Below, one piece after another: positions 21,896-54,816 of a DNA stretch of 64,000 nucleotides. Position 1 is the stretch's first letter. Each line of letters opens with the position of its first letter. This DNA is from Bacteroidia bacterium (lineage in GTDB: Bacteria > Bacteroidota > Bacteroidia > Palsa-965): positions 80,483 through 144,482 of the forward strand of contig JBBRYH010000003.1 of assembly GCA_038237845.1 (NCBI GenBank). The letters run 5' to 3'. Position numbers and translations under genes: made by a program. The notes beneath the pieces are model-generated. The model had not been told where the DNA came from. It made no database searches and saw only the letters and a program-made list of their open reading frames with translations.

Positions 21896-22939
21896 TTAGA
21901 AAAAGCTGGGTTTAGCCATTCTTGTATTCTGAGCGCTATAAATTCCAGTATAAATCAGCATAAATTCCAAGGCACCTTTGCCTTTACTAACTGCTGTCAA
22001 TCCTGAAATATTCAAATCATAATTAAAAGCAGCACCGATTGCGCCGAAATCGATTCTAACATAACCTGTCATCGCATCTTTTAAACGATACATTGCACCA
22101 ATAGAAAATGCTCTGTCGTTCTGAAAGGCAGTATAATGGGAACGATCTTGCAATTTATATTTAATACCTGCACCCATATTAATAATTCGTGCTGGCCCTT
22201 GTTGAACAAATTGCAATTGTGGAAGTAACCACGCATTCGAATTTTCCCCTAATGCAACTTGCGCGGAATAATGCAGCCCGATTTTCATATACAACTTATC
22301 TTTTCCTCCTAGGAATTCAATCTCCGGTCTACTAAGGTGAGCAACAGAAAGTCCACCGCTCATCTTAAATCGATCATTCGCAACTGATGAGATGGCAACT
22401 CCAGTTGCATAATCCCCAAATAAATAATGGTCGTTGGGCAAACTTGTTTCACCACTCGCTAAAGTTGCATCATAAAGCAACCCGTTAAATTGACTATCCC
22501 AACTTGAACTTCCTAGATTGATACTACGTTGCCCCATCCCCAGCTGAAGTCCAACAGAAAAGAAAGTCGCCCCTACTCCATCCAATGATTTATTATAAGA
22601 ACCACTAACTGAAAACTGATTATTCACCAAACTTGTACTGCCTGCTTTATCTGCATTTACATTCAATCCAATAGCAAAAAAATCCGGACTTGATTTATGC
22701 TTATCATGTTTTACTAAAGGCATATCGGCACCAAACGAATAAGTGGAATATGGTTTAGCCGAAATACTCCCCCATTGCATTCTATAATTATTAATAACAC
22801 GCAAATCACCTGTAAAATTTCCAGTTAATGCAGGATTAAGAGACAGCGGCGCCATTGCAAACATTGAATAATGGAAATCCTGCGCATTTAAAAAAGCGGT
22901 CATTCCAAAAACGGCAAAACAAATTAATATTCGTTTCAT
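21896..22939 (-). CDS. PorP/SprF-family T9SS outer-membrane protein
   Basis: 347 aa. Family N-terminal signature QDFHYSMFAMAPLSLNPALTGNFTGDLRVINNYRMQWGSI. It lies immediately downstream (13-nt gap) of a type-B CTD cargo gene, which is the canonical cargo/PorP-SprF arrangement. Confidence 0.8.
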   Translation of the reverse strand: MKRILICFAVFGMTAFLNAQDFHYSMFAMAPLSLNPALTGNFTGDLRVINNYRMQWGSISAKPYSTYSFGADMPLVKHDKHKSSPDFFAIGLNVNADKAGSTSLVNNQFSVSGSYNKSLDGVGATFFSVGLQLGMGQRSINLGSSSWDSQFNGLLYDATLASGETSLPNDHYLFGDYATGVAISSVANDRFKMSGGLSVAHLSRPEIEFLGGKDKLYMKIGLHYSAQVALGENSNAWLLPQLQFVQQGPARIINMGAGIKYKLQDRSHYTAFQNDRAFSIGAMYRLKDAMTGYVRIDFGAIGAAFNYDLNISGLTAVSKGKGALEFMLIYTGIYSAQNTRMAKPSFF

Positions 22940-22951
22940 AATTGAAATTTT

Positions 22952-34416: not shown

Positions 34417-34478
34417 CATTTCGCTCATAATATCAACCAAAAATAACATCCAATTTTTTGCAACATAAATCCAAACAC

Positions 34479-37400
34479 ATGACAAACACTTACAAAACAA
34501 ACCGAAAGAATTCAGCTTTTACGAATGGCATTCGTATGGCAGTATTGGCTTTCACTTTCTTAGCATTTGGCTTGAATTCAAATGCGCAGGTTTCTACTTA
34601 CACATTTGCTGCTTCGGCAGGAACCTATACTCCTATTTCCGGTGGAACTGTTCTTGGAACCCCGACTAATGATGATAACATATTTGCAAATAATCCAATT
34701 GGATTCCAGTTTTGCTATAACGGATCACTGTACACTGAGTTCGGTGTAAATGCGAATGGTTGGATTTATATGGGAAATTCAATTGGTTCAAGTTCATATA
34801 ATTCTTTAAGTACTGGTTTTACGAACAATGTAATTTCGGCTTTCAACTTTGATATTCAAGGAGAAGCTACAACAGGTGACCTTCAATATAAAGTACTTGG
34901 TTCTGCGCCTAATAGAACTTTGGTAGTTCAATGGTCAAATTATGATGCTTACCAAAGTGTTCTGAATACAGATGTTTACAATTTCCAGATTCGTTTATCA
35001 GAGACCACAAATCAAATCAGCAATGTTTACGGTTCATATACCTGTAACGTTGCGGCTCGTACAGCTCAAGTAGGTTTACGTGGTGCTTCAAATGCAGACT
35101 ATAATAACATCTCCGTTTCAAATGGTATTAACACTTGGGCAACACCAATTGCTGGTGTGACAAATGCTTCAACCGGAGAAATTAACAATACTCCTTTAGT
35201 TCCTGCCTCAGGACAAACTTATACTTGGTCACAACCTGCTGCACCTGCGCCACCAATCACATTGGCATTTTCTGCAGTTACTTCGACCGCAATGAATCTT
35301 TCATGGGTTGATAACTCAACAAACGAAGCAACTTTTTATGTTTATCGTTCAATTGACAATATCACTTTTACTTTGGTAAATACACAGGCTTCAACATCTG
35401 TTGCAACAACTGGTACAACTTACAATTTTGCAGCAACATCACTTTTCTCTAACACACTTTATTATTGGCGTGTTTTTGCAGGAAATGCAAATTGCGGAGG
35501 CACTCCCCTTACAGGGACACAAGCTACACTTGCAGGAACGATGTGCGGTACTTATACCATTGGACCCACAGGAGCTTATACTTCTTTAACTGCTGCTGTA
35601 GCTGCGGTGGTAACAAATGGCGTAAACTGTCCATTGATATTCGAATTTCAAGCGGCTTATTTAAGTACTGTAGAAACTTTCCCTATTGTAATTCCATTCT
35701 TAGGAAATGGCCCTGCTGCAACAATTACTGCCCGTCCTGAATTAGGTGCAACTAACCTTGCAATTACTTCTGCTGCAACACAAACTATTGATTTTAGTGG
35801 CGCAACCTATTTCAGTTTCGATGGTCGTCCTGGCGGAGTTGGTGTTTTATCACAACTTACAATCGATAATTCATCTATAACTGGTAATGCTGTTAGATTC
35901 ATCAATGATGCTCAGAATGATGGATTAAACTATATGAAAGTGCGTGGTGTAACTACTTCAGTTGCAACTGGTATTATTACTTTCGGAAACTCAATTACTA
36001 CAGGTAACAACAATAACTTTATTACCAATAGCGATATTACCAGTGGTGCTTCAAGTGCGGCGGTTTTAATTTATGGTTCTAATACCATAACAACTGCGCT
36101 TAATGCTGGAAACAATATCAGCAATAATAATATTTACAATTGGTTTAATGCAACGGCTGCTGATGCTGCTATTAGCATTAACGGAAGCTCATCTGCTTGG
36201 TCTATTACTAATAATAGCTTCTATCAAACTGCTAGTAGAACTTATACAATTGGTGTTTTACATTATGGCATTTTTATCAATAGCACAACAGGAACAACGG
36301 GTAACTTCACTGTCAATGGAAATTTCTTTGGTGGAAGTGCGGCAAATTGTGGCGGAAGCGCTTGGACAGATGGTGGTGCAGTCGCACATCGTTTTATTGC
36401 ACTTAATGTAACAACAGGCAGTGTTGGCATAAATAATATTCAGGGTAACACAATTAAAAATTTCAACTTCACTACTTCAAGTACTACCTCTACTACAAAT
36501 GGTATTTGGTGTGGTATCAGTCTTACAGGTACTTCTGCTAATATGAATGTTGGTACCACTACTCCTAATATAATTGGAAGCAATTCTGCAAATGGTCAGA
36601 TTGTAACACTTACATCTGGCTCAGGTGGTGCAACTGTAGGAATAAATTCTTCTGCTTCTGGAAACATAAATATTAATGGAAATCAAATTGGCGGAATTAC
36701 TGCTAACAGTACTTTACCCACAATTTCTTCAAGTATCAATGGAATTATTATTAGCTCAGGCTTCCCTTTAATTACAAATAACGTAATCGGAAGTGTAACA
36801 CTTGGAAGCAGTTTGGTAAATGCAATTAGTAACAGTATTACAGCAGGTCAGATTACTGGAATTAACAGTTCAGCGTTTTCAGGTGCTGTAATAATTACTG
36901 GCAATACAGTTTCTAACCTTACAAATCAATATGGCGGAACTTCCATAACAGGATATGTTCGTGGAATTGTTTCTACTAGCGGAATTAATACTATCAGTGG
37001 AAATACCATTGCAGCGTTATCAAACCTTGCACCGCAAACAGGTACTACAACAACAGCTTCTGTTATAGGAATCGGATTACAATCAACTTCTACAGCTATT
37101 CTTGGAAACCAAAGAGTTTTTGGAAATACAATTGGCGGACTTGCAAATGGTTCACCTTCAGGAAACGTTCAGGTCAATGGAATTTTAGTTACTTCATCAT
37201 TAACTACAGGATATACTTATAAAGTTTATAATAACAGTATTCAATCATTAGGTGCACCTCTTACTTCCGGAACTCCAATTATTGCTGGTATTCAGATTTA
37301 TGGTGGAACAGGACGTGTTTATAATAACATGGTTGTTCTTGGTGTTGATGTTCTTGGAAATGCAATCACTGCAAACCAAGAATATGATGGCATTTTCAAG

Positions 37401-40400
37401 AACACTGCAAATCAATCTACAATAGCTTTTAACTCCGTTTCTATTGCAGGAAATGGTGTTACTGCGGGAACCGCAAATACTTATGGATTCCGTCGCGCAA
37501 ATGGCCCAGTTGCAGCTCCAGTAGATTCTTTGTACAGCAATATTTTTTCTAACACCCGTTCAAATGGTGCAGGAACTGGATTCCATTATGGAACACAATT
37601 TAATGCTGTAACCGGAATTGTTTCTAACGGAAATGATTTTTATGGAACAGGAACTGGTTATCAAATGGGAGCAATTGGTGTTACTAACTATAACAGTGTT
37701 TCTGCTTGGACAGCAGCAACCACCTTTGATGCAAACTCTTTTGGTGTTGACCCTTTCTTCACTAGCACATTAAATCTTCACATCAATAATCCTGGTCAGA
37801 CTCCATTAGAATCAAGAGCGATTCCAATGGGAATTGTTTTTGACTTTGATAACCAAGTTCGTCCTGGACCAACAGCAATAAATGGCGGTGGTACAGGTCC
37901 TGATATTGGAGCTGATGAATTTGACGGATTTCCTGTTAACATCGACTTAGGCGTTCAGTTACTGGTTAGTCCACTTACTGTAGGTTGTCATACAGCAACA
38001 GAAAGAGTACGAGTACGAATTAAAAATAATGCAACTACCGCTATTAATATGGCTGTAAATAATGTAACCGTAAATGGAAGTGTAACTGGACCAAATCCAG
38101 TTGTGTTCCCAACGCTAACTATTACTTCCGGTGTTATCGCTGGTGGAGGAACCTTAGACACTACTTTATTATTAAATTATAATATGACATTGCCTGGTAC
38201 TTATGTATTCAATGCTGCAACTTCACAAGCACTTGATTTCGTAAATTCCAACGATGCAATGGGCGCAGTATCCATTTTCATTGGTGGCGGCGTAACTACA
38301 GTTTCACCTTCATCTATGTGTCTTGGCTTAGCAACAAATCTTGCAGTTGCAGGACAAACAAATGGAGGTACAATTCAGTGGCAGGAATCTGTTGATAATA
38401 TTACATGGACAAATATTGTAGGTGCAACAACAACTCCTTACAGCATTACTCCTACGCTGGATACAACTTGGTATCGCGCACAAGTTTGTGGATCATATAA
38501 CTCAATCTCAGATACTGCTAGAACAATTTTTGTATCTCCTGCCACAACTGTAGGTGCTACTCGTTGCGGAACTGGTCCGGTTACACTTACTGCAGCTGGT
38601 TCAGGAACTTTAAATTGGTATAACGTTCCAACAAATGGTTCACCAATTAATACAGGTACAACTTATTCTCCTACTGTTTCTACAACAACCACTTATTACG
38701 TTGAGAATTCTACTGGAACTTCCAATGGAATTCACCAAACAACATTTGCAGGTGGAAACGGTTCAGCTGGAAATGCGTTTACAGTAAAAGCACTTTCTAC
38801 ACCAATTACCATTACAAGTTTTGATGGCAACGTGAATGCTGGTACTTATACATGGGAAATTTGGTATCGTCCGAATGATTATTTGTTAAGCCCAGGATCA
38901 CAATTATCAAATGTTGGCTGGACACAGTTAGCAATTGTTCCCGGCGTTGTAAGTGCTGGTGCAGGATTACCAACTGCAATTCCTGCAGCATTAAGTCTTG
39001 TTATCCCTGCAAACACAACTTACTCTTTCCAAATTTTCACACAAACTGGAAGTGTAATTTATACAAACGGAACTGCATTAGGTGCACTTTATAATGCAAA
39101 TGCTGACCTTGAAGTTTATCAAGGACATGGTGGAACAGGATTTGCCGGAATGGTAAATAATCCTCGTGTGTTTAATGGACGAATTCATTACACTGCTGGA
39201 TGTTCAAGTTCACGTACATCTGTAGTTGCTACCGTAACTGCACCTCCTACAATCACAGCTGTGTCAGGCGCGCTTCAACTTTGTGGAAACGATACAACAT
39301 TATTAACAGTATCAAGTTCCAATACAAATTATGGATACACATGGTCACCAGCAACAATGTTGAATACAACCATTGGTGATTCTGTATTGTTCATGCCAAC
39401 AACACCTGGAAATTACACATACTATGTTGATGCATTAGATGGCGCAAGTGGATGTACAAATCGTGATACGGTTTCTATTACAATGAATGCAATTCCAACG
39501 ACAACTGCATCAGTAAACACTACACCGGTATGTGCAGGAAGTACTATCAACTTATCTGCTTCGCAGCCAGCATCCACTGTGCAGATTACTAATAACAATG
39601 TATTAAATACAAGCACAACCTATCCTGCTCCTTATGGAAATTGGTATGGTGGTTCTCGTCATCAAATGTTAATCCTTGCTTCAGAATTAACTGCTGCTGG
39701 TTTAACTTCTGGTAATCTTGCAGGCATGACCTTTCAGGTTACAAATACAAATGCATCAGCTGCCTTGACCAACTTCACAATTTCGATGGGTTCAACAGCC
39801 TTAACAGATTTGTCTGCAGGTTTTGCAGCGATAAGCGCAACAACTGTTTATACAAATCCAAGTTACGCTCCTACTGTTGGTGCCAATACGCACACTTTCT
39901 CAACTCCTTTCTTCTGGGATGGTTCATCGAATATTATTGTTGAAACTTGTTTCGCGAATTATACAACATTCCCGAATACCACTTTCACAAACAATTGTAC
40001 GATGCGTCAAACGACAACTACGTTTGTATCTACAGCTTATAATTTCTATGATAACACGGCAAACATTTGTGGAATTGCTAGCACAGCAACTGCAACTCAA
40101 CGCCCGAATATCGGATTCATCAGAAGCTTCAGTTCTTGGTCTTATAATTGGCTTCCTACTTTAAACGTTGCGAATCCAACTATGCAGAACACAACAGCTA
40201 CTCCTACTGTTACAACAAATTATATTGTTACAGTTACAGATGCATTAACTGGTTGCAACTCTTCTGATTCTGTGAATGTGGTTGTAAATCCAACGCCAAG
40301 TCCAATGTTAGGTGCTGATACTGCAATTTGTTCAAACACCGCATTAACTCTTGATGGTTCAACAGGAACTAACTATGGTTATTTATGGAACAATGCGGCA

Positions 40401-41864
40401 ACATCTCAAACTATAGCTGTTTCAGCGTTCGGTAACTATTCTGTAATTGTTACGGATACTGTTACAGGTTGTGCTGGTCGAGATACCATTCTTGTAGGAA
40501 TTAATGCAGCTCCTGCTTTCTCCTTGGGTTCTGATGTAACTATTTGCGCTGGAAATACCGCTTCATTCTCTGGACCAACAGGTCAATTCCATTACGCTTG
40601 GTCTACAACTGAAATCACGCAAGCAATAACAACTGGTGTTGCTGCTTCTTACGAATTAGTTGTAACGGATACAATCAATGCATGTTTTAATAGTGATACA
40701 ATTGCTTTGTTTGTAAATCCATTGCCAATTATTAATCTTGGTTCAGATACTTCAATTTGTAGTGTAAATGCTCCTTATGTTTTGGTAGCTACTGCAGGTG
40801 GTTACAGTTACAACTGGAGTGATCTTTCTACGAATGATTCTTTACTTGTTAATGCAACAGGTTCTTATTACGTTTCTGTTACAGATATTGCAACAACATG
40901 TTATAGCAGCGATACTGTACAAGTAACCATCAATACTTCACCTGTTGTTAGTCTTGGTGCTGATTCAACATTCTGTAGTGCTTCTGGTCCAATTGTCTTA
41001 ACTGCAACAGCAGGACCATTTGATTATTTGTGGAGTGATTTGTCAACAGGAATTTCTCTGTCAACAAATACTACTGGTATCTACAACGTTACTATTACCG
41101 ATTCAATCACAGGTTGTAATGCAATGGACACTGTTTCAATAATTGTCAATGCAAGTCCTGTTGTTAACCTCGGAGCTGATACTATGCTTTGTGGAGGTAA
41201 CGTAATACTAGATGCACAAAATGCCGGAGCTAACTATATGTGGAATACAACTTCAACGACACAAACAATTACTGCTTCAACAACTGGTAATTATTATGTT
41301 GACGTAACTAGTGGCGCAGGTTGTTTAGCAACAGACTCTATCATGGTCACTATTAATACTCCTCCAGTAGTAACATTTACACCGCAGGCAAATGCATGTT
41401 CAACTGATCCAGCGTTTACACTTGTTGGTTCTCCAGCTGGTGGAACATTCAGCGGACCTGGAGTAACAGGTAACATGTTTACACCTTCAGCAGCTGGAAT
41501 TGGTGCTCATACCGTTACATACTTCTACACCGATGTAAATGGTTGTTCTGGCTCTGTAGATGCAATTATAAACGTCAATGCTTGTGTGGGTGTAACAGAA
41601 CCGTTTATTGCAGCAGGAATGAATGTATTCCCTAACCCAAATAACGGATCATTCACCTTGACGATTAACGATGCAAACTTTACAGAAATCACCATGGAAA
41701 TTGTTACAATAGAAGGACGTGTCCTCATGAGTGACAAAGTATCCAATGTAAAAGGTGCTTATGTAAAACAATTTAATCTTAGTACTGAAGCAAACGGAAT
41801 TTACTTCCTGAAAGTGACTGCAAACGGGCAGACTTACATGCAAAAGGTGGTTAAGAATGACTAA
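34479..41864 (+). CDS. giant (about 2460 aa) cell-surface adhesin-like protein with T9SS type-A C-terminal sorting domain
   Basis: Signal peptide ...MAVLAFTFLAFGLNSNAQ. A fibronectin-III-like module (LSWVDNSTNEATFYVYRS...YYWRV). A long G/N/T/S-rich beta-helix-like region. Eight or more ~80-aa Ig-like repeats of the form LG(A/S)D(T/S)xIC. C-terminal Por_Secre_tail (...ANGIYFLKVTANGQTYMQKVVKND). The ORF opens at a TTG at 34458. The first ATG is at 34479. Confidence 0.8.
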   Translation: MTNTYKTNRKNSAFTNGIRMAVLAFTFLAFGLNSNAQVSTYTFAASAGTYTPISGGTVLGTPTNDDNIFANNPIGFQFCYNGSLYTEFGVNANGWIYMGNSIGSSSYNSLSTGFTNNVISAFNFDIQGEATTGDLQYKVLGSAPNRTLVVQWSNYDAYQSVLNTDVYNFQIRLSETTNQISNVYGSYTCNVAARTAQVGLRGASNADYNNISVSNGINTWATPIAGVTNASTGEINNTPLVPASGQTYTWSQPAAPAPPITLAFSAVTSTAMNLSWVDNSTNEATFYVYRSIDNITFTLVNTQASTSVATTGTTYNFAATSLFSNTLYYWRVFAGNANCGGTPLTGTQATLAGTMCGTYTIGPTGAYTSLTAAVAAVVTNGVNCPLIFEFQAAYLSTVETFPIVIPFLGNGPAATITARPELGATNLAITSAATQTIDFSGATYFSFDGRPGGVGVLSQLTIDNSSITGNAVRFINDAQNDGLNYMKVRGVTTSVATGIITFGNSITTGNNNNFITNSDITSGASSAAVLIYGSNTITTALNAGNNISNNNIYNWFNATAADAAISINGSSSAWSITNNSFYQTASRTYTIGVLHYGIFINSTTGTTGNFTVNGNFFGGSAANCGGSAWTDGGAVAHRFIALNVTTGSVGINNIQGNTIKNFNFTTSSTTSTTNGIWCGISLTGTSANMNVGTTTPNIIGSNSANGQIVTLTSGSGGATVGINSSASGNININGNQIGGITANSTLPTISSSINGIIISSGFPLITNNVIGSVTLGSSLVNAISNSITAGQITGINSSAFSGAVIITGNTVSNLTNQYGGTSITGYVRGIVSTSGINTISGNTIAALSNLAPQTGTTTTASVIGIGLQSTSTAILGNQRVFGNTIGGLANGSPSGNVQVNGILVTSSLTTGYTYKVYNNSIQSLGAPLTSGTPIIAGIQIYGGTGRVYNNMVVLGVDVLGNAITANQEYDGIFKNTANQSTIAFNSVSIAGNGVTAGTANTYGFRRANGPVAAPVDSLYSNIFSNTRSNGAGTGFHYGTQFNAVTGIVSNGNDFYGTGTGYQMGAIGVTNYNSVSAWTAATTFDANSFGVDPFFTSTLNLHINNPGQTPLESRAIPMGIVFDFDNQVRPGPTAINGGGTGPDIGADEFDGFPVNIDLGVQLLVSPLTVGCHTATERVRVRIKNNATTAINMAVNNVTVNGSVTGPNPVVFPTLTITSGVIAGGGTLDTTLLLNYNMTLPGTYVFNAATSQALDFVNSNDAMGAVSIFIGGGVTTVSPSSMCLGLATNLAVAGQTNGGTIQWQESVDNITWTNIVGATTTPYSITPTLDTTWYRAQVCGSYNSISDTARTIFVSPATTVGATRCGTGPVTLTAAGSGTLNWYNVPTNGSPINTGTTYSPTVSTTTTYYVENSTGTSNGIHQTTFAGGNGSAGNAFTVKALSTPITITSFDGNVNAGTYTWEIWYRPNDYLLSPGSQLSNVGWTQLAIVPGVVSAGAGLPTAIPAALSLVIPANTTYSFQIFTQTGSVIYTNGTALGALYNANADLEVYQGHGGTGFAGMVNNPRVFNGRIHYTAGCSSSRTSVVATVTAPPTITAVSGALQLCGNDTTLLTVSSSNTNYGYTWSPATMLNTTIGDSVLFMPTTPGNYTYYVDALDGASGCTNRDTVSITMNAIPTTTASVNTTPVCAGSTINLSASQPASTVQITNNNVLNTSTTYPAPYGNWYGGSRHQMLILASELTAAGLTSGNLAGMTFQVTNTNASAALTNFTISMGSTALTDLSAGFAAISATTVYTNPSYAPTVGANTHTFSTPFFWDGSSNIIVETCFANYTTFPNTTFTNNCTMRQTTTTFVSTAYNFYDNTANICGIASTATATQRPNIGFIRSFSSWSYNWLPTLNVANPTMQNTTATPTVTTNYIVTVTDALTGCNSSDSVNVVVNPTPSPMLGADTAICSNTALTLDGSTGTNYGYLWNNAATSQTIAVSAFGNYSVIVTDTVTGCAGRDTILVGINAAPAFSLGSDVTICAGNTASFSGPTGQFHYAWSTTEITQAITTGVAASYELVVTDTINACFNSDTIALFVNPLPIINLGSDTSICSVNAPYVLVATAGGYSYNWSDLSTNDSLLVNATGSYYVSVTDIATTCYSSDTVQVTINTSPVVSLGADSTFCSASGPIVLTATAGPFDYLWSDLSTGISLSTNTTGIYNVTITDSITGCNAMDTVSIIVNASPVVNLGADTMLCGGNVILDAQNAGANYMWNTTSTTQTITASTTGNYYVDVTSGAGCLATDSIMVTINTPPVVTFTPQANACSTDPAFTLVGSPAGGTFSGPGVTGNMFTPSAAGIGAHTVTYFYTDVNGCSGSVDAIINVNACVGVTEPFIAAGMNVFPNPNNGSFTLTINDANFTEITMEIVTIEGRVLMSDKVSNVKGAYVKQFNLSTEANGIYFLKVTANGQTYMQKVVKND

Positions 41865-46912: not shown

Positions 46913-47266
46913 ATGAAACGTTTCCTAATTATTCTGCTCATCTGTTTGCCTTTTCTGTCGCTGACTGATACTAGAAGTTGGGTTTATATTCACCAAACTG
47001 TTGTATCAGACATTACGCCTTATACTGATGCGCTGGTTCATTCTGATCTTGATAAGTATCGCTATTTTGATATGCGTAATACTTTACATTTTGAAAATGG
47101 TTTGGATGTAGAATTACTTTCTGCTAACGAATTAACTGCTTCAGGAATTCCATTCAATAGCAGTCACGTAAGAACAGCTGTACCCTCCTTTGATACTCAT
47201 TCCATTTTCAAATTAACTGCAAATGGAATTTTAGTGGAAGTACAAACAAGATCTAAAATCAAATAA
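46913..47266 (+). CDS. hypothetical small secreted protein
   Basis: Signal peptide MKRFLIILLICLPFLSLT. About 117 aa. It lies directly upstream of the first giant type-B CTD gene. Confidence 0.35.
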   Translation: MKRFLIILLICLPFLSLTDTRSWVYIHQTVVSDITPYTDALVHSDLDKYRYFDMRNTLHFENGLDVELLSANELTASGIPFNSSHVRTAVPSFDTHSIFKLTANGILVEVQTRSKIK

Positions 47267-47271
47267 ACAAG

Positions 47272-50200
47272 ATGAAGAAAATATACTTTTTACTTTGTTT
47301 GGTTTTAGCTTCATTCGCTTTTACAACAAACACATTTGCTCAAGTTGCCAATGATGATTGTTTTGGTGCAACGCCATTAGGAACATTAGGTGCTCCTGCT
47401 CCATGTCCTAGCGGATTAGGTGCTGTTTCTACTTTCAACAATTTGACAAACGTGAATTCGGTAACAGAAATGCCGTATACAACACTCATCAATTGTCAGC
47501 CCTCCAACAATACACCGATGGCATCACCTGCTACGGACGTTTGGTTTTCATTTGTAAATAATGGTAATGCATTAAATATTACGATCAATGGAAATATTGT
47601 GAATCCAAACGTTGCTGTTTATCAGGGCGGATGTGCAGGACTAATTGGAAGAGGATGTGCGATTGGATCAGGAAATTCATTGACGGTTCAATTCGATCAA
47701 ATGACGATAGGAACCACTTATTATATTCAAGTAAGCGGAGGTACTCCAGCTGACCAAGGAACATTCACCATGACTTTACAGAATGTGAATTCATGTTCAG
47801 ATTGTTTACTTGCTTCGAGCATGACGGTAAATCCACTTCCTACTAATGGAACTTACCAAGGAGGAACAACAGTTACTTTTTGTTTTACTATTTCACAATG
47901 GGATCAACAAAATACAAACTGGTTACATGCAGTAATTCCAACTTTTGGTTCCGGATGGAATTTAGGATCCTTAACGGGATTAGTAGGTGCTGCAACTTGT
48001 GATGGAGGTCCAGGAGTTTGGTCTTGGTTTAATAATGTAAACACTCCGAATGGAAATGGAATTCTTTCAGGATTTTTCTTTGACGGTGATATTGTTCAAG
48101 GCGGACCAAACGGAAACCCTACCGATAATTTCGGTGACAATTGTACTGGTTTAGTGAACTGGACTTTCTGTTGGACGATTACAGCTGATCTTTGCCCTCC
48201 AGGAAACAATGGAGATGATTTAAGTATTACTGTAGATACATTCGGTGATGGTGAAACAGGTAACTGGACTAACGTAGCTTGCATTGCTGATCCTGTTTAT
48301 CAATTCAATGCTTCACTTGCATGTTGTGCCCCTCCACAAATGGTGCAGACAAACGTTTTGTGTTTCGGTGGTAATAATGGATCAGTAACTGCTACAGCAG
48401 TGGGTACAGGTCCATGGGATTATACATGGTACAATTCTTCTAATACTGTTTTACAAACTTCCCTTGGGAATGCGGGTGCAAATACCATTAACAATCTTAC
48501 AGCAGGTACCTATCATGTTACTGTTGTAGATAATAACAATGGTTGCACTACCACAACAACCGTTACCATAACTCAACCTACCCAGTTGACTTTAAATACA
48601 ACCTTTACTCCGGCGGCTTGTAACCAAGCTAATGGTACGGCAACGGTAACTCCAAGTGGAGGAATTGCGCCATACGATTTTGTATGGACGGATGCATTGA
48701 ACAATGTACTTCAAACAGCAAACAATTTACCGGGAGCCAATACACTGAATAATTTGGCAGCAGGCACTTACAATATTCTTGTTACGGATGCCAACAACTG
48801 TCTTTCCAACGTTTCAGTAACTGTTACGGGAGTACCTGGAAGTTTAGCAGATGTTACTGATAGTATTCCTGCAAGTTGTTTTGGAACTTGTGATGGATCT
48901 GCTACATGCACGCTGAATGGTGGAACTGCTCCTTATGCATATCAATGGAGTGCGAATGCAGCAAATCAGGTTACAGCAACTGCAACAAATCTTTGTGTCG
49001 GAACTTACACCGTAAATTACTCAGACGTTAATAATTGTTCCGGAAATGCAACCGTAGTGGTTACAGGTCCTCCTGCAGTTACCTCCACTGTTGCCGCAGC
49101 ACCAACTACAATTTGCATTGGTCAATCGAGCAATTTAACTGCAACACCTGCAGGTGGAACAGGTTCAGGTTACACGTATGTATGGACGCCTGTAGGAACA
49201 GGTAACACACAAGTTGTTTCCGTTTCTCCGATTGTAACAACTACTTATACTGTTGTAGTTTCTGACGGTAATGGATGTTCAGCTCCACCGGCAACAGTTA
49301 CCGTAACTGTAAATCCTGCAATCAACGTAACACTTGGAGCAAATCCAACTACAGTTTGTCTTGGATCACCATCGGTATTAACTGCAAATGGAAGCGGTGG
49401 AAATGGCGGACCTTACACTTACAGTTGGTTGCCAGTAGGAACTGCAGGAAATACAATTACTGCGAACGTTTCTCCAACGGTTACGACAACTTATACCGTA
49501 ATTATTTCTGATGGTTGTACGATTCCAAATGATTCAGCTTTTGTAACCGTTACCGTAAATCCTTTACCGGTTGTAACATATACTGGAACACCGCTTACAG
49601 GTTGTGCTCCATTAAACGTTTCTTTTACAAATACAACAGCAGGAAGTACAAATTGTCTTTGGGATTTCGGTGATAATTCAACTTCTGTAAATTGCGGACC
49701 AATCGTTTCGCATACTTACTTGAGTCCCGGTTGTTATGATGTAACACTTACCGTAATAGATGCAACAGGATGTATAGGAACATTGATGTTACCGAACTAT
49801 GTTTGTGTTGATGCAAATGTTCTCGCGCAATTCAGTGCAAGTCCACAACCGACAAACATTTTCAATACCAATATCAATTTCACTGATCAATCTACTGGCT
49901 CACCAATAACATGGACTTGGTATTTCGGGACCTTAGATAGTGCATTTGTGCAAAACCCTACTTACAATTTCCCTGGTGATGCTGCCGGCTGTTATGATGT
50001 AGTTTTGATTGCAAACAATGCTGCAAATTGTCCAGGTTCAGATACGATGCAAGTTTGTATTGATCCTGATTATGTTATTTATTTCCCTAACGCATTTACT
50101 CCAGATGGAGATGGTATTAATGAAGGATTTATTGGTGTAGGAGAAGGCATTAAGAAATATGAAATGTGGATTTTCGATCGCTGGGGTAATCAATTATATT

Positions 50201-50352
50201 ACACCGATGATATTAATAAACCATGGAATGGAACAGTTGCCGGTAAGAGCGGGCAAATCTGCGAGGAAGATGTTTATGTTTGGAAAGCTACAGTCGTTGA
50301 CGTATTTGACAAAAAACATAAGTTCATCGGTCACGTTTCATTGATCCGATAA
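47272..50352 (+). CDS. giant secreted protein with SprB repeats, PKD domain and gliding-motility-associated (T9SS type-B) C-terminal domain
   Basis: 1026 aa. Signal peptide MKKIYFLLCLVLASFAFTTNTFAQ. Multiple SprB-type repeats (VTPSGGIAPYDFVWTD.., CTLNGGTAPYAYQWSAN..). PKD-like module (CAPLNVSFTNTTAGSTNCLWDFGDNS). Type-B CTD (YFPNAFTPDGDGINEGF...WIFDRWGNQLY...PWNG). Confidence 0.8.
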   Translation: MKKIYFLLCLVLASFAFTTNTFAQVANDDCFGATPLGTLGAPAPCPSGLGAVSTFNNLTNVNSVTEMPYTTLINCQPSNNTPMASPATDVWFSFVNNGNALNITINGNIVNPNVAVYQGGCAGLIGRGCAIGSGNSLTVQFDQMTIGTTYYIQVSGGTPADQGTFTMTLQNVNSCSDCLLASSMTVNPLPTNGTYQGGTTVTFCFTISQWDQQNTNWLHAVIPTFGSGWNLGSLTGLVGAATCDGGPGVWSWFNNVNTPNGNGILSGFFFDGDIVQGGPNGNPTDNFGDNCTGLVNWTFCWTITADLCPPGNNGDDLSITVDTFGDGETGNWTNVACIADPVYQFNASLACCAPPQMVQTNVLCFGGNNGSVTATAVGTGPWDYTWYNSSNTVLQTSLGNAGANTINNLTAGTYHVTVVDNNNGCTTTTTVTITQPTQLTLNTTFTPAACNQANGTATVTPSGGIAPYDFVWTDALNNVLQTANNLPGANTLNNLAAGTYNILVTDANNCLSNVSVTVTGVPGSLADVTDSIPASCFGTCDGSATCTLNGGTAPYAYQWSANAANQVTATATNLCVGTYTVNYSDVNNCSGNATVVVTGPPAVTSTVAAAPTTICIGQSSNLTATPAGGTGSGYTYVWTPVGTGNTQVVSVSPIVTTTYTVVVSDGNGCSAPPATVTVTVNPAINVTLGANPTTVCLGSPSVLTANGSGGNGGPYTYSWLPVGTAGNTITANVSPTVTTTYTVIISDGCTIPNDSAFVTVTVNPLPVVTYTGTPLTGCAPLNVSFTNTTAGSTNCLWDFGDNSTSVNCGPIVSHTYLSPGCYDVTLTVIDATGCIGTLMLPNYVCVDANVLAQFSASPQPTNIFNTNINFTDQSTGSPITWTWYFGTLDSAFVQNPTYNFPGDAAGCYDVVLIANNAANCPGSDTMQVCIDPDYVIYFPNAFTPDGDGINEGFIGVGEGIKKYEMWIFDRWGNQLYYTDDINKPWNGTVAGKSGQICEEDVYVWKATVVDVFDKKHKFIGHVSLIR
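48620..50352. repeat. duplicated 3' segment, copy A (paralogous to 53030..54751)
   Basis: Roughly 75-85% nucleotide identity at its 5' end, rising to about 95% over the last ~930 bp, versus copy B. Identity is visible by eye over long runs, for example the runs beginning ...ggaaatacaattac.gc.aacgtttc.ccaac.gttacgacaacttataccgtaattatttctgatggttgtac. Confidence 0.8.
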
Positions 50353-50377
50353 AGTATTTTCAAATCAAAATTTTAGA

Positions 50378-50420
50378 ACAGATTCCTTTTTCCTAACAGA
50401 AATTGGAATCTGTTTTTTTT
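50378..50420 (+). terminator. rho-independent terminator after the first type-B adhesin gene
   Basis: ACAGATTCC-...-GGAATCTGT hairpin followed by T8. Confidence 0.7.
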
Positions 50421-50575
50421 ATGCCAAATAATCATATAACTAGCCATTTGCTAAGTTCCTGGATTTAATTGCATTAGACTTGTTTTTTTTATATATTTGA
50501 AAGTCCCTGAAACTCGTTTTGACTAAAGGCAATTCAGAAATCAGGTATTTGTTAGTGAATGAAAAATTCCCCAAG

Positions 50576-53500
50576 ATGAAACACTTTACTACGATCAAAA
50601 TTGCCTTCCTATTTTGTTTGTTTTCATTTTCTGCCATTGCGCAAATGGAACAACCTTCCAATGGTTTTCTAAAGAAACTTGGAGAACAATCGAATGCAGC
50701 ATTTGTTGAAAATGCTGGGCAGTTAAATAATATTGAGGGGCTTAAAGGGGAAGATGTTCTTTTCAGTTTTACGGATGACAGAGGATTGACTGCCTATTTT
50801 ACTAATTCAGGCGTTTTCTATAAAGTATTCAATAGAGTTCAAGTTACAGAAGAGGAATATGAGCGTGAGATGAAGAAAAAAGGGGGAACGAATTTTGAAG
50901 AAAATGAACCAGGCGAAAAAGACAAACCAAAATTTATTGTAAAGTCTTCTTTGGTTGAAATGAATTGGATTGGTGGTAATGATCACGCAAAAATTTACGG
51001 GAAAGAACAAACAGGCAATTACTTCAATTTTTATATGCCTGAAATTGATAGAGACAAAGTCATTGGATATGTAAATGGTTTCAAAAAATTAGTTTATGAA
51101 AATATTTATCCATTCATCGACATTGAATATTCAGTTCATCCTGAAAAAGGGTTAAAGTATTCCTACATCTTGCATCCTGGTGCTAATCCATCATTAATTC
51201 AAATGAATTACAAAGGCGCTACAATCAAAAAAGATGAAGCGGGAAATATTATTATTTCAACAGGAAACGGGAACATCACAGATTTTGCGCCGCAAACTTA
51301 TAAAGGCTTACAAACTGAAGGAAATATTATTGATTCTCAATTTGAACTCAAAAAGTCAAATACTATTTCATTCAGTTTTGCAAATGACCATGATCCAATT
51401 ACTCAAACAATTGTAATCGATCCTTGGCAAGTTGGGCCTAACTTCCCTGCTGCAAGCTATACTCCTAACGATCTTTCTGTAGATGGCGCTGGAAATATTT
51501 ATGTGTATTCCATTAACACCGCTACCTCTTCACGTATTGACAAATACAGTCCTGCAGGTGTATTCATTTGGACTTTCAACTTAGGAACGAATGCTGGTTA
51601 TTCTATTTTTCAAGGTGATGTAGCTTCTGATCCAGCAGGTAATGTTTACGTTTCAATTGGATTAGGTCCCAATAATAACACTGCATTTTACAACACGATT
51701 AAAATAAATCCTGCTGGTTCTGCTTTATTATGGGGAAATGCATCTGCAGGTACTGGTGCAAATAATATGATGGAAACTTGGACCATTACATTCAATTGTA
51801 GTTTTTCTCAGTTCTATCAATCAGGAGGCGGACGAATTGTTGCGGGAACTACCTACTTCAACATGAGTGTTGAAGAACCCGTGAATGCTGCAACAGGTGT
51901 AGAAGGTACATTGGTTGAAAACGATTCCTTAGGTGATATTTATTGCACGTATTACGCACCAAATAATTTTATCTATCACATGACTGGTGACAGTAATGTC
52001 ACACCCAATTTAGCAGGCGGATTAATAGCAGCTACTTCTGGATCAGATAATAATTTGATTTGTTTTAATGCTGCAACCGGAGTTCGAATGTTTCGTGTTC
52101 ATACAGGATATGCTTATGTAGATGGAGATGTGAAAGCTCCAGGATCTGTAGGTATGAATGCAATTACTTCTAATTGCCAATATTTATATACAACAAATGG
52201 ATCAAAATTAGATAGATGGGATCCTGTTACAGGCGCACACTTTAATCAAGTAACAATTCCAGGTGGCAGTACAACTCCCGGAACTGTTAATGCAGGAATT
52301 ACTACTGACAAATGCGGTAATATTTTTGTTGGGTCGGCCAATAATATTTATGAATATGATGCCACATTGAATTTGATCAATACAATTGGCGGACTCCCCG
52401 GTGTTGTATTTGATTTAGCTTGGGCAAATGCAGCAAATACCTCGCTCGCTGTTTGTGGAGGAACATCCAATGCAACTACTTTCCTTGCAAATGTTGCAGT
52501 AACCGCATGTGTCTTGCCAAACTTCGTTACTGTCACAGCAGTCCAACCTTCTTGCGCTGTACCAACTGGATCAGCAACAGCCACGGCAACTTTCTGTGGT
52601 GGACCTTACACCTACTCATGGAGTGATGGACAAACTACACAAACTGCAACTGGATTACCTCCAGGAACATATACAGTTACTGTCTCCTCTTCGGTTTCAT
52701 GTCCTTACTCTTATGTTCAAACACAAACTGTAACTATTGTCCCAGGATCTGGAACATTATCAACTGCTCAAACAAGCAACGACAATTTGTGTAATGCTGG
52801 TTGTGCAGGCTCAGCTACTGTTACACCTTCAGGCGGACTAGCACCATATACTTACGCGTGGTCGCCAAGCGGAGGAAACGCTGCTACTGCAACTGGACTT
52901 TGCGCAGGAACATACACCTGTGCAGTTACTGATGCCTCTGGTTGTGCAACTACAGTTTCATTTACAATTACTGCACCACCACCAATTGTACTAGCGAGTA
53001 CATCTGTAGGTGCGAGTTGTAATCAAACAAATGGTTCTGCAACTGTAACGCCAAGTGGTGGAACAGGACCATATGATTTTGTTTGGACTGATGCATCGAA
53101 TACTGTTTTACAAACAGCAAACAATGTAGCTGGAGCAAATACATTAAATAATATTGGAACTGGAACTTACAACGTACTCGTAACGGATGCCAATAATTGC
53201 CTATCGAGTATTTCGGTAATTGTTTCTGGTGCACCTGGCGGTATTACTAGTGTTATGACGAACGCTGCAGTAGTTTGTTTCGGAGATTGTAATGGAACAG
53301 CAACTGCAACAGTAAGTGGTGGAACAGGTCCTTACACTTATCAATGGAGTGCAAATGCCGCGAATCAAACGACTATAACTGCAACGAATCTTTGCGTTGG
53401 AACATACACTGTAAATTACTCCGATGTAAACAACTGCTCAGGAACAGATACTGTAACAGTTACTGGACCGACACAAGTAACAGCAACAATTGTCGCTGCA

Positions 53501-54751
53501 CCTGCTACAATTTGTATTGGACAATCTTCAACACTTACAGCAACACCTGCTGGCGGTTCAGGAGTTGGTTATACTTATGTGTGGAGTCCTGTTGGAACTG
53601 GAACAACACAAAGTGTTTCTGTATCTCCAATCGTTACCACAACTTATACCGTTGTTGCAACAGATGGAAATGGATGTCCAGGCGCTCCTGTAACCATTAC
53701 AGTTACTGTCAATCCTCCTGTGAATGTTACACTCCTTGCTAATCCAAGTCCTGTTTGCATTGGATCACCTTCTACATTAACTGCTACACCGAATGGTGGA
53801 AATGGCGGACCTTACACTTACAGTTGGTTACCAGTAGGGACTGCAGGAAATACAATTACAGCAAACGTTTCACCAACAGTTACGACAACTTATACCGTAA
53901 TTATTTCTGATGGTTGTACCACTCCGAATGATTCTGCTTTTGTAACCGTTACCATAAATCCTGCACCAATTGTAACATTTACTGGAACACCACTTACAGG
54001 TTGTGCTCCATTAAACGTTTCGTTTACCAATACAACAGCAGGTAGTACAAATTGTCTTTGGGATTTCGGTGATAATTCAACTTCTGTAAATTGTGGACCA
54101 ATTGTTTCACATACTTACTTGAGTCCTGGTTGTTATGATGTATCACTTACGATAACAGATGCAACAGGATGTATAGGAACATTGATGTTACCGAACTACG
54201 TTTGTGTAGATGCAAATGTTCTCGCGCAATTCAGTGCAAGTCCACAACCAACAAACATTTTCAATACCCACATCAATTTTACTGATCAATCAACTGGTGC
54301 ACCAATAACATGGACTTGGTATTTTGGGACTTTAGATAGCGCTTTTGTGCAAAATCCAACTTACAATTTCCCTAGTGATGCTTCTGGCTGTTATGATGTA
54401 GTTTTGATTGCAAACAATGCTGCAAATTGCCCTGATTCAGATACGATGCAAGTTTGTATTGATCCTGATTATGTAATTTATTTCCCTAATGCATTTACGC
54501 CGGATGGCGATGGTATTAATGAAGGATTTATTGGTGTTGGAGAAGGCATTAAGAAATATGAAATGTGGGTTTTCGATCGTTGGGGTAATCAATTATATTA
54601 CACAGATGATATAAATAAACCATGGAACGGAACCGTTGAAGGTAAGAGCGGACAAATCTGCCAGGAAGATGTTTATGTTTGGAAAGCAACTGTCGTTGAC
54701 GTATTTGACAAAAAACATAAGTTCATCGGTCACGTTTCATTGATCAAATAA
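50576..54751 (+). CDS. giant secreted protein with N-terminal beta-propeller-like region, SprB repeats, PKD domain and T9SS type-B C-terminal domain (paralog of 47272..50352)
   Basis: Signal peptide MKHFTTIKIAFLFCLFSFSAIAQ (ATG at 50576; the longest ORF starts at 50519). A unique N-terminal ~800 aa. The C-terminal ~575 aa is 75-96% identical to the upstream gene, including its PKD module and type-B CTD. Confidence 0.8.
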   Translation: MKHFTTIKIAFLFCLFSFSAIAQMEQPSNGFLKKLGEQSNAAFVENAGQLNNIEGLKGEDVLFSFTDDRGLTAYFTNSGVFYKVFNRVQVTEEEYEREMKKKGGTNFEENEPGEKDKPKFIVKSSLVEMNWIGGNDHAKIYGKEQTGNYFNFYMPEIDRDKVIGYVNGFKKLVYENIYPFIDIEYSVHPEKGLKYSYILHPGANPSLIQMNYKGATIKKDEAGNIIISTGNGNITDFAPQTYKGLQTEGNIIDSQFELKKSNTISFSFANDHDPITQTIVIDPWQVGPNFPAASYTPNDLSVDGAGNIYVYSINTATSSRIDKYSPAGVFIWTFNLGTNAGYSIFQGDVASDPAGNVYVSIGLGPNNNTAFYNTIKINPAGSALLWGNASAGTGANNMMETWTITFNCSFSQFYQSGGGRIVAGTTYFNMSVEEPVNAATGVEGTLVENDSLGDIYCTYYAPNNFIYHMTGDSNVTPNLAGGLIAATSGSDNNLICFNAATGVRMFRVHTGYAYVDGDVKAPGSVGMNAITSNCQYLYTTNGSKLDRWDPVTGAHFNQVTIPGGSTTPGTVNAGITTDKCGNIFVGSANNIYEYDATLNLINTIGGLPGVVFDLAWANAANTSLAVCGGTSNATTFLANVAVTACVLPNFVTVTAVQPSCAVPTGSATATATFCGGPYTYSWSDGQTTQTATGLPPGTYTVTVSSSVSCPYSYVQTQTVTIVPGSGTLSTAQTSNDNLCNAGCAGSATVTPSGGLAPYTYAWSPSGGNAATATGLCAGTYTCAVTDASGCATTVSFTITAPPPIVLASTSVGASCNQTNGSATVTPSGGTGPYDFVWTDASNTVLQTANNVAGANTLNNIGTGTYNVLVTDANNCLSSISVIVSGAPGGITSVMTNAAVVCFGDCNGTATATVSGGTGPYTYQWSANAANQTTITATNLCVGTYTVNYSDVNNCSGTDTVTVTGPTQVTATIVAAPATICIGQSSTLTATPAGGSGVGYTYVWSPVGTGTTQSVSVSPIVTTTYTVVATDGNGCPGAPVTITVTVNPPVNVTLLANPSPVCIGSPSTLTATPNGGNGGPYTYSWLPVGTAGNTITANVSPTVTTTYTVIISDGCTTPNDSAFVTVTINPAPIVTFTGTPLTGCAPLNVSFTNTTAGSTNCLWDFGDNSTSVNCGPIVSHTYLSPGCYDVSLTITDATGCIGTLMLPNYVCVDANVLAQFSASPQPTNIFNTHINFTDQSTGAPITWTWYFGTLDSAFVQNPTYNFPSDASGCYDVVLIANNAANCPDSDTMQVCIDPDYVIYFPNAFTPDGDGINEGFIGVGEGIKKYEMWVFDRWGNQLYYTDDINKPWNGTVEGKSGQICQEDVYVWKATVVDVFDKKHKFIGHVSLIK
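53030..54751. repeat. duplicated 3' segment, copy B (paralogous to 48620..50352)
   Basis: See copy A. Includes a near-identical CTD-coding region. Confidence 0.8.
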
Positions 54752-54774
54752 ACACAACTATTAATAAAAATATT

Positions 54775-54816
54775 ACAGATTCCAGATTTTCATAAATCTG
54801 GAATCTGTTTTTTAAG
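54775..54816 (+). terminator. rho-independent terminator after the second type-B adhesin gene
   Basis: ACAGATTCCAGATTT-tcat-AAATCTGGAATCTGT hairpin followed by T6. It shares its GGAATCTGTTTTTT 3' arm with the 50378..50420 terminator. Confidence 0.7.

Follow-up and report, generated by a model that had tools for sequence, protein, structure and literature searches.

Probable gene conversion of the secretion and anchoring module between two tandem T9SS type-B CTD adhesin genes

The window, i.e., the whole stretch of 64 kb of DNA that was analyzed, harbors two complete and separately terminated genes in tandem, both predicted to encode adhesins of the T9SS type-B CTD class. Based on the sequence of the window and of related loci, the 3′ tail of these genes has very probably been copied between them by gene conversion. 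This is concluded from a step in nucleotide identity and in synonymous divergence (dS), from a switch of the tree topology from grouping by orthology to grouping by genome, and from derived indels shared by both copies. Here, ordinary homologous recombination would be the mechanism.

The genes and their parts are listed in Table 1. Gene 1 is immediately followed by gene 2 and gene 2 by hpt, which is found near the pair together with genes for glycosyltransferases, an LptF/G permease and an aspartyl protease. Upstream, a small ORF ends 5 nt before the start of gene 1 and is therefore probably co-transcribed with it. Its product matches no Pfam or NCBIfam family; a homologue with 50–76% amino acid identity is present directly upstream of the gene 1 ortholog in nearly all related loci.

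Table 1. Features of the tandem gene pair and of its direct surroundings (positions within the window).
Feature	Position	Strand	Content or basis
Small ORF, 117 aa	46915..47266	+	Translation; signal-peptide-like N-terminus
Gene 1, predicted T9SS type-B CTD surface protein, 1026 aa	47272..50352	+	ORF, domain profiles
Gene-1-specific N-terminal region	47272..48612	+	Signal peptide, Cys/Trp-rich domain, first SprB repeat
modA copy 1, older shared segment	48613..49395	+	SprB repeats and 1.5 Ig-like repeats
Putative converted tract, copy 1	49396..50352	+	Last 318 codons and stop codon; half Ig-like repeat, PKD domains, type-B CTD
Gene 1 intrinsic terminator	50375..50420	+	Interrupted hairpin, then T8
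Candidate promoter element TATATTTG	50492..50499	+	Matches -7 consensus TAnnTTTG; 77 nt upstream of gene 2 ATG
Gene 2, predicted T9SS type-B CTD surface protein, 1391 aa	50576..54751	+	ORF, domain profiles
Gene-2-specific N-terminal region	50576..53011	+	Signal peptide, DUF7948, beta-propeller-like region, SprB repeats
modA copy 2, older shared segment	53012..53794	+	Pairs with 48613..49395
Putative converted tract, copy 2	53795..54751	+	Last 318 codons and stop codon; pairs with 49396..50352
Gene 2 intrinsic terminator	54775..54813	+	Perfect 15-bp stem, 4-nt loop, T6 (terminator scan)

Both genes contain SprB repeats, PKD domains and a CHU_C / TIGR04131 type-B T9SS CTD, as the preliminary description of this DNA had stated, and the Pfam and NCBIfam matches lie above the cut-offs. 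For TIGR04131, with a curated cut-off of 35 bits, the scores are 40.3 bits in gene 1 (residues 937–1026) and 37.6 bits in gene 2 (residues 1302–1390); for PF13585 (CHU_C; cut-off 27 bits) they are 38.0 and 36.3 bits, respectively. The N-termini MKKIYFLLCLVLASFAFTTNTFAQ and MKHFTTIKIAFLFCLFSFSAIAQ, read from the translations of gene 1 and gene 2, are signal-peptide-like. By the C-terminal HMM match and a predicted N-terminal Sec signal peptide, both proteins are assigned to the putative T9SS type-B CTD cargos. As a class, such cargos are further marked by five conserved motifs, A–E, within their last 100 aa and by secretion that depends on the T9SS and a shuttle.

The open reading frames and their unrelated N-termini were confirmed, and the only common element of the N-terminal regions is one SprB repeat (40% identity over 83 aa). 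The Cys/Trp-rich domain of gene 1 is a weak match to GBD_T9SS_assoc, whereas gene 2 carries DUF7948 (Pfam E = 1e-42) and the beta-propeller-like region. These are unrelated domains and not copies of one ancestor, so that the N-terminal parts cannot be described as diverging, as had been proposed. The N-terminal region of gene 1 is 67–83% identical to its orthologs on amino acid level. Distant homologues of the N-terminus of gene 2 (29–43% amino acid identity) carry type-A or type-B CTDs. The exact protein sequence of gene 1 was not found on database look-up, and the closest database relative is 77% identical on amino acid level.

The last 1,740 nt of both genes are collinear and gap-free at an offset of 4399, which agrees with the ~1.7 kb of paralogous sequence noted before. 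Within this alignment, the first 783 nt (modA) are 70.8% identical (29.2% divergence) and the following 957 nt are 92.8% identical (7.2% divergence); the encoded 318-aa tails are 95% identical. A gradient had been suggested, leading from 75–85% to ~95% nucleotide identity over the final ~930 bp. The rise itself was reproduced, with other values and as a single step instead of a gradient: the maximum chi-square breakpoint lies at 49396 (chi2 147), a value reached in 0 of 1000 permutations, and no second significant breakpoint was detected in either half of the 1,740-nt alignment. Across this position dS drops five-fold, from 1.38 to 0.28, and dN from 0.19 to 0.026, with a dN/dS of ~0.09 downstream. 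Such a drop in dS is not explained by stronger protein constraint alone. The 69 differences within the tract are evenly spread, with 12/7/50 of them at codon positions 1/2/3, and the reading frames of both copies are intact. Since the changes after the event are mostly synonymous, purifying selection still acts on both copies, which are presumably functional. The 5′ junction of the tract is located at the motif GGNGGPYTY.WLPVGTAGNT, which is conserved in all paralogs and orthologs, and the 3′ junction is the stop codon.

Identity had further been reported to extend into near-identical terminators. Instead, it falls to 37% just past the stop codon; the spacers between stop codon and terminator (24–26 nt) are not alignable between the genes, and the two terminators have only the outer 9-bp stem arms ACAGATTCC / GGAATCTGT and the T-run in common, whereas the inner stems and loops differ. 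The RNA folds have energies of −19.0 kcal/mol for gene 1 and −21.9 kcal/mol for gene 2, each with z = −6.1. A dispersed repeat was considered for the terminator and rejected, since the exact 14-mer GGAATCTGTTTTTT is present within the window at just the two terminator sites and the exact hairpin in 0 of 122 fetched loci. The ORF of gene 2 opens at TTG 50519. Upstream of it, TATATTTG is a weak candidate for an independent promoter of gene 2. TAnnTTTG represents the −7 promoter consensus of Bacteroidota. The motif is not enriched window-wide, and a sigma-70 promoter scan stayed at background level; the string TATATTTGAAAG is also found upstream of gene 2 in the related MAG locus L006.

For the orthology test 44 related loci were used, and neighbor-joining (NJ) trees with bootstrap were calculated from short segments of 96–271 columns. 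The test for concerted evolution covers two genomes, the window (W) and L006, because no close gene 2 ortholog was found beyond L006. In the modA tree the sequences group by orthology, with a bootstrap of 100% for gene 2 of both genomes (W_g2 and L006_g2) and of 87% for gene 1 (W_g1 and L006_g1). In the tree of the PKD part they group by genome (W_g1 with W_g2, 100%), and the CTD tree likewise unites the window pair (96%) and the L006 pair (98%). The tails of the window paralogs are 92.8% identical to each other vs. 64–72% to any ortholog on nucleotide level, and upstream of the breakpoint there is no such excess. In the alignment, a 1-aa deletion, the motif TNTTAGSTNC and a 2-aa insertion (GPIVSH) are shared by both window copies only; the indels and motifs TNTTAGSTNCLW and SVNCGPIVSHTY common to these copies are absent from 17 ortholog sequences. 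Grouping by genome inside the tract and by orthology outside, a supported breakpoint and shared derived indels are thus found together, and the gene conversion of the secretion/anchoring module that had been proposed is upheld at the level of sequence comparison.

The conversion had been regarded as recent or ongoing. Here, the data support one discrete event, which would be moderately old: the dS of the tract (~0.28) is similar to that between the species-level MAGs L003 and L004, and neither an unusually long identical run nor a younger sub-tract was found in the 1,740-nt alignment.

Orthologs of gene 1 are present in L002–L035. In ~20 relatives the gene is single-copy, with the NAGPA-like/small ORF pair on one side and hpt on the other. 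Most relatives have hpt right behind gene 1; this order without gene 2 was seen in L004, L005, L008–L014, L020, and L030. Among the fetched loci, the order gene 1–gene 2–hpt was observed outside the window only in L006, an independent MAG, which also contains the only close ortholog of gene 2 (74% amino acid identity). Searches of metagenomes and of proteins with the N-terminus of gene 2 yielded no close ortholog beyond L006, other relatives being at most 43% identical. A flank-gene tree, calculated from three genes including the N-terminus of gene 1, displays the topology ((W,L004) 90%, L006) 99% (NJ bootstrap). Since this places L004 together with the window, gene 2 is probably absent from the sister lineage L003/L004 through loss. 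The modA signature sites of L004 (10 of gene-1-type vs. 2) fit a deletion with the crossover further 3′, or that gene 2 was never present. The paralogous CTDs of L006 differ by a dN of 0.05 and the orthologous CTDs by 0.15–0.18; this gene pair appears to have homogenized its own CTD independently, over roughly the last 96 codons.

The history would then be as follows. The 1.74-kb 3′ region would have a common origin beneath unrelated passenger (N-terminal) domains. Its 5′ 783 nt would have been diverging since before the split from the L006 lineage, still tracking orthology, and the 3′ 957 nt would have been copied later from one gene into the other, presumably in one non-reciprocal event of homologous recombination involving direct repeats spaced 4.4 kb from each other. 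Among the signature sites of the window tail, 24 match gene 1 and 14 match gene 2 of L006, and the outgroups give the same ratio. The copied tract, comprising half an Ig-like repeat, the PKD domains and the CTD, would span all of the 150–235 aa reportedly needed as type-B secretion signal (PMC12618676). Furthermore, the repeat pair would have acted as recombination substrate elsewhere too, leading to the independent CTD homogenization in L006 and the probable loss of gene 2 in L003/L004.

A replacement of both tails by sequence of a third paralog at another genomic site, or by foreign DNA, is unlikely. Such a donor would fit the long stem branch that the PKD tree shows for the window pair, as well as a patch in the first PKD domain (~49592–49700), where both window copies are only 54–64% identical to every ortholog on nucleotide level and carry unique indels. 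In addition, the ~318-aa PKD-PKD-CTD module is widespread, with 983 database matches on many different passengers. However, two events with identical 5′ and 3′ junctions would be required, where one junction is detectable. No closer donor was found among 5.8 billion proteins, the best match (77%) being a syntenic ortholog, and the one further type-B module of the window reaches ~30% identity. Even under gene conversion within the pair, sequence of the first-PKD patch may derive from a third, unseen paralog.

A single duplication without any recombination, in which the last 957 nt are merely under stronger purifying selection on PKD and CTD, is very improbable. The CTD is indeed also the most conserved part among the orthologs, and the L006 pair, like other pairs, shows a mild climb in identity toward its 3′ end. 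The tail is better conserved in a distant tandem pair of L047 as well (70–80% vs. 40–50% amino acid identity elsewhere; dS 1.5 vs. 2.95, saturated). Purifying selection does not account for a five-fold synonymous drop at a single sharp point, for tails that are far closer between paralogs than to orthologs, which is not so upstream, or for a tree topology that changes across the breakpoint together with derived indels in both copies.

Equally improbable is a programmed variation, in which the shared tail would be a constant recombination handle for swapping passenger cassettes onto one expression/anchoring site. A cassette-like surface variation had been put forward before. Unrelated passengers on a common tail, database members of the DUF7948 passenger family with CTDs of either type A or type B, and a gene 2 that was gained or lost among close lineages would be in line with it. 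Nevertheless, both genes are complete, each with signal peptide and terminator, only two copies exist in 64 kb, and neither silent cassettes nor, in the neighborhood, recombinase or invertase genes were found. In the region of 46–56 kb no significant inverted repeats are present, those that exist being at most 28 nt long and imperfect. Moreover, a dS of 0.28 means that exchange is rare on an evolutionary timescale, and gene 1 is stably single-copy in ~20 relatives. An assembly artefact, i.e., a collapsed or mis-joined repeat giving a spurious near-duplicate tail, is the least credible explanation: tandem repeats of 93% identity are hard for short-read assemblers, and frameshifts do occur in related MAG loci (L002, gene 1 of L006), but 69 evenly spread differences, 50 of them at third positions, two intact frames, unique sequence flanking both copies and the same gene 1–gene 2–hpt layout in the independent L006 exclude it as a refutation.

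No PorP/SprF gene follows gene 1 or gene 2, nor is one present within 10 kb of the gene 1 orthologs in close relatives. The window contains a single PorP/SprF gene (21896..22939, minus strand), located behind another type-B cargo; it was judged an unlikely shuttle, since it is paired with this other cargo, whose module is ~30% identical overall to that of gene 1 and gene 2. The preliminary description was correct in the absence of an own downstream partner and not in calling this unusual, because a missing adjacent PorP/SprF is already known for type-B cargos. In F. johnsoniae, 9 of 12 type-B cargos have an adjacent porP/sprF-like gene and 3 of 12 are orphans (PMC12618676). The latter (Fjoh_1123, Fjoh_1720, Fjoh_4934) are all served by one unlinked orphan shuttle, Fjoh_1677, and crosstalk has been described between type-B CTDs at 68% identity (PMC12618676). 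By analogy, the near-identical secretion/anchor modules suggest that both cargos of the window are probably handled by one common unlinked PorP/SprF-like shuttle. Whether the homogenization was favored by selection is more doubtful. Tentatively, conversion could keep both CTDs matched to one shared unlinked shuttle, with several cargos co-evolving with a single partner, because recognition of type-B CTDs by PorP/SprF-like shuttles is highly specific and neither cargo has a linked shuttle. This would explain why the CTD lies inside the homogenized tracts of two independent lineages.

The gene pair represents a phylogenetically tested case in which the T9SS type-B C-terminal secretion/anchor module would have been copied between otherwise unrelated adhesin genes, and it suggests that tandem repeats of such genes promote homogenization as well as gene loss. 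It can be viewed as a natural "swap experiment," in which the moved unit would be PKD-PKD-CTD and not the 85-aa CTD alone. As orphan cargos whose 318-aa tails are 95% identical, both are predicted to depend on one and the same unlinked PorP/SprF-like shuttle. The case also calls for caution in annotation and phylogeny, since regions of such genes close to the CTD do not follow orthology.

Gene conversion between bacterial paralogs is classically known from tufA/tufB, the rRNA operons and the opa genes of Neisseria. The window pair resembles such concerted evolution, where repeats in dispersed or tandem arrangement exchange sequence non-reciprocally in a RecA-type manner, in that the paralogs within a genome are closer than the orthologs across genomes and in that the sharp tract boundaries ignore domain limits. 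In contrast to the tufA/tufB type, homogenization is confined here to the 3′ third of two genes without other homology, and the tract coincides with a secretion/anchoring signal and not with a whole gene. The SprB repeats, the type-B CTD (as in SprB) and the cell-surface adhesin architecture are reminiscent of SprB/RemA-type gliding adhesins. SprB, however, has ~6500 aa, whereas the window genes encode 1026 and 1391 aa and are not followed by sprF. Silent cassettes, invertible segments and a site-specific recombinase, as in pilE/pilS-, vlsE- and shufflon-like systems, were not found around the gene pair. Like the orphans of F. johnsoniae, both genes have no adjacent porP/sprF-like gene and mutually similar CTDs (>44% there, 95% here); unlike the window pair, those orphans have not been reported to be tandem or homogenized by conversion (PMC12618676). 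For rgpA, kgp, and hagA of P. gingivalis, surface-protein diversity has been attributed to rearranged domains and to gene conversion (PMC5266723). These are also T9SS cargos with different N-terminal functional domains; the 3′ adhesin modules that they repeat are identical or nearly so, and their CTD is conserved (PMC5266723). There, the CTDs are of type A and served by PorV, and the genes are dispersed and compared on strain level, whereas the pair described here is of type B, arranged in tandem and compared between species-level MAGs.

Gene 1 and gene 2 both encode products with a typical signal-peptide sequence at the translated N-terminus and a T9SS type-B sorting domain at the C-terminus (TIGR04131, 40.3 and 37.6 bits, respectively; cut-off 35 bits), and the latter is also matched by PF13585 (CHU_C). 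SprB repeats and PKD domains lie N-terminal to this CTD in both. The passengers are unrelated, as first described; a BLASTP comparison of the two passengers aligns one SprB repeat only. That of gene 1 has a domain rich in Cys and Trp that weakly matches GBD_T9SS_assoc, and that of gene 2 has DUF7948 (E = 1e-42) with a beta-propeller-like region behind it. The small ORF ending 5 nt before gene 1 occupies the same place in almost every relative (50-76% aa) and may be an operon partner of this adhesin gene.

Features of the window (coordinates in nt)
Feature	Coordinates	Strand	Remarks
Gene 1	47272..50352	+	1026 aa ORF
Gene 2	50576..54751	+	1391 aa; ORF opens TTG 50519, signal peptide from ATG 50576
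Small ORF	46915..47266	+	117 aa; signal peptide, no family match
PorP/SprF gene	21896..22939	-	sole one in window; PF11751 E = 8e-29
Type-B cargo	22952..25411	-	819 aa, PKD/CHU_C; PorP/SprF gene directly behind, canonical position
Tandem type-A pair	18174..18956, 18985..19776	-	260 and 263 aa; SprB repeats, type-A CTD
Large ORF	34458..41864	+	2468 aa; type-A T9SS CTD (TIGR04183), Ig_7 domains; mostly without family match
First PKD domain, patch	49592..49700, 53991..54099		both copies 54-64% nt vs every ortholog, unique indels

Over their last 1,740 nt, the adjacent genes 1 and 2 form a gap-free alignment at an offset of 4399. A gradient of identity had been proposed for this region; the profile is instead a single step with one breakpoint at 49396 (maximum chi-square scan, chi2 147; no more than 29 in 1000 permutations), with a divergence of 29.2% on the left and 7.2% on the right. 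The same method found no second significant breakpoint in the left or right half of the repeat, and the longest identical run of the right half (54 nt) is within the permutation expectation (mean 63). Nei-Gojobori estimates between the genes are dS 1.38 and dN 0.19 for 48613..49395, and dS 0.28 and dN 0.026 for 49396..50349, where 50 of the 69 differences fall on third codon positions. The dN/dS since the event, about 0.09, indicates both genes to be functional.

For the shared region, 19 sequences were aligned and NJ trees (200 bootstraps) were calculated for three segments. On the 5' side of the breakpoint the window genes group with their orthologs at L006, a related locus in another MAG (gene 2 100%, gene 1 87%). 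On the 3' side the two window copies group together (100% in the PKD part, 96% in the CTD), as do the two L006 copies (60 and 98%). Furthermore, a 1-aa deletion with the motif TNTTAGSTNC and a 2-aa insertion (GPIVSH) are common to both window copies and found in no ortholog of the alignment; all non-window sequences read TPNNP.W..C ... NCNP--.H at these indels. Within L006 the CTD dN is 0.05 between paralogs versus 0.15-0.18 between orthologs. This is concerted evolution, and it occurred independently in the window and L006 lineages, the two that retain the pair. Gene conversion of the 3' module is strongly supported by the dS step, the topology switch and the shared indels. The window event is not very recent: its dS (0.26-0.33) is similar to the value (0.20-0.26) for the sister MAGs L003 and L004. 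Ongoing conversion, as considered in the preliminary description, is not supported; a single, moderately old event is strongly supported, and the observation itself is real. The divergent patch in the first PKD domain either is a loop with accelerated change or was imported earlier from a further PKD paralog and then spread by the conversion.

The one discrete tract is 957 nt long. On the 5' side it begins within an Ig-like repeat, at the motif GGNGGPYTY.WLPVGTAGNT kept in every paralog and ortholog, and on the 3' side it ends at the stop codon. Probably, the direct repeats, 4.4 kb apart, exchanged sequence non-reciprocally in a RecA-type reaction that was resolved where pre-existing identity peaked. 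The tract (318 aa) covers the whole 150-235 aa reportedly required for type-B secretion (PMC12618676). The tandem type-A pair displays a uniform 45% identity along its length without 3' homogenisation; lying in tandem is therefore not enough to make tails uniform.

Both genes are followed by a strong intrinsic terminator of their own (-19.0 kcal/mol for gene 1, -21.9 for gene 2, z about -6). These had been called near-identical, which holds for the outer 9-bp stem arms and the T-run, whereas spacers, inner stems and loops differ. The high identity does not extend into them, but drops to about 37% directly 3' of the stop codon; the 14-mer reported from the hairpins is exact and occurs in the window at these two sites only. 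The terminators of the window pair and the L006 pair, four in all, show a recognisable relationship; the unit that was first duplicated therefore probably contained the terminator as well. In two relatives, short tandem units lie 3' of the adhesin gene in place of the hairpin (GGGAACGAATTACGAGA at L003:5585-5654, ACAGATTA-like at L001:1342-1440). Upstream of gene 2, TATATTTG at 50492, kept in L006, matches the Bacteroidota-type -7 consensus, a motif match alone being weak evidence.

With the N-terminus of gene 1 as query, a scan of contigs from one genome per species gave 44 related loci, all in uncultured Bacteroidia/Flavobacteriales-like MAGs, onto which the window proteins were mapped. The neighbourhood is kept across them: glycosyltransferases, an NAGPA-like gene, the small secreted ORF, gene 1, hpt and an aspartyl protease. 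In L004, L005, L008-L014, L020 and L030, hpt comes directly after the gene 1 ortholog; among the mapped loci only L006 (CAIQQJ010000006) has the order gene 1-gene 2-hpt, and the N-terminus of its gene 2 shows 74% identity to that of the window gene. No close gene 2 ortholog beyond L006 was found by metagenome scan and protein search, and the best protein match of the tail is 77%. A flank tree (GT2, gene 1 N-terminus and hpt; 1008 columns) gave ((window, L004) 90%, L006) 99%. The orthology of gene 2 between window and L006 makes it probable that their common ancestor had this gene and that the L003/L004 lineage lost it. The obvious route would be recombination between the direct repeats of 1.74 kb, which would leave the gene 1-hpt order seen there. 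In L004, the older 5' part of the shared region (48613..49395 and 53012..53794 in the window genes) is gene-1-type, and the tail is without usable signature. Frameshifts in the gene 1 orthologs of L006 (12237-12364, 2-nt deletion) and L002 (2700-2800, contig coverage 2.9x) may reflect errors in the MAGs or their assembly, or else incipient pseudogenisation in the presence of gene 2.

The DUF7948-propeller-SprB-PKD-type-B-CTD plan is also found widely in distant relatives (29-43% identity), some of which lie in tandem. One such array, at L047:7172-14346 with a third copy from about 14482, has paralogs with 40-50% aa identity over the first ~800 aa and 70-80% over the last ~300 aa; dS is saturated, and the contrast may be due to either conversion or constraint. 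Among homologues of the DUF7948-propeller passenger (P0121-P0137), the CTD is type-A (PF18962) in some and type-B (PF13585) in others; thus, exchange of the sorting module on this family has taken place over long timescales.

Neither gene has a linked PorP/SprF partner, and the canonical pair at 21896..25411 (-), whose cargo module is about 30% identical overall to that of genes 1 and 2, provides an internal contrast. That this lack is unusual, as initially thought, is not supported: in F. johnsoniae, three of 12 type-B cargos are orphans, all on one orphan shuttle, and shuttle crosstalk was seen at 68% CTD identity (PMC12618676). By this analogy, the two window proteins, which are 95% identical over 318 aa, probably use one unlinked shuttle. 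That conversion is under selection because it keeps both orphans fitted to a single shuttle appears unlikely.

A cassette system for surface variation, as suggested earlier, is not supported: silent copies, a recombinase and significant inverted repeats are lacking in this neighbourhood, and exchange is rare. That paralogous surface-protein genes undergo gene conversion is textbook knowledge; a full-text literature search yielded no account of type-B CTD modules evolving in concert. The situation resembles rgpA, kgp and hagA of P. gingivalis, T9SS cargos that have near-identical adhesin/CTD regions in common (PMC5266723).
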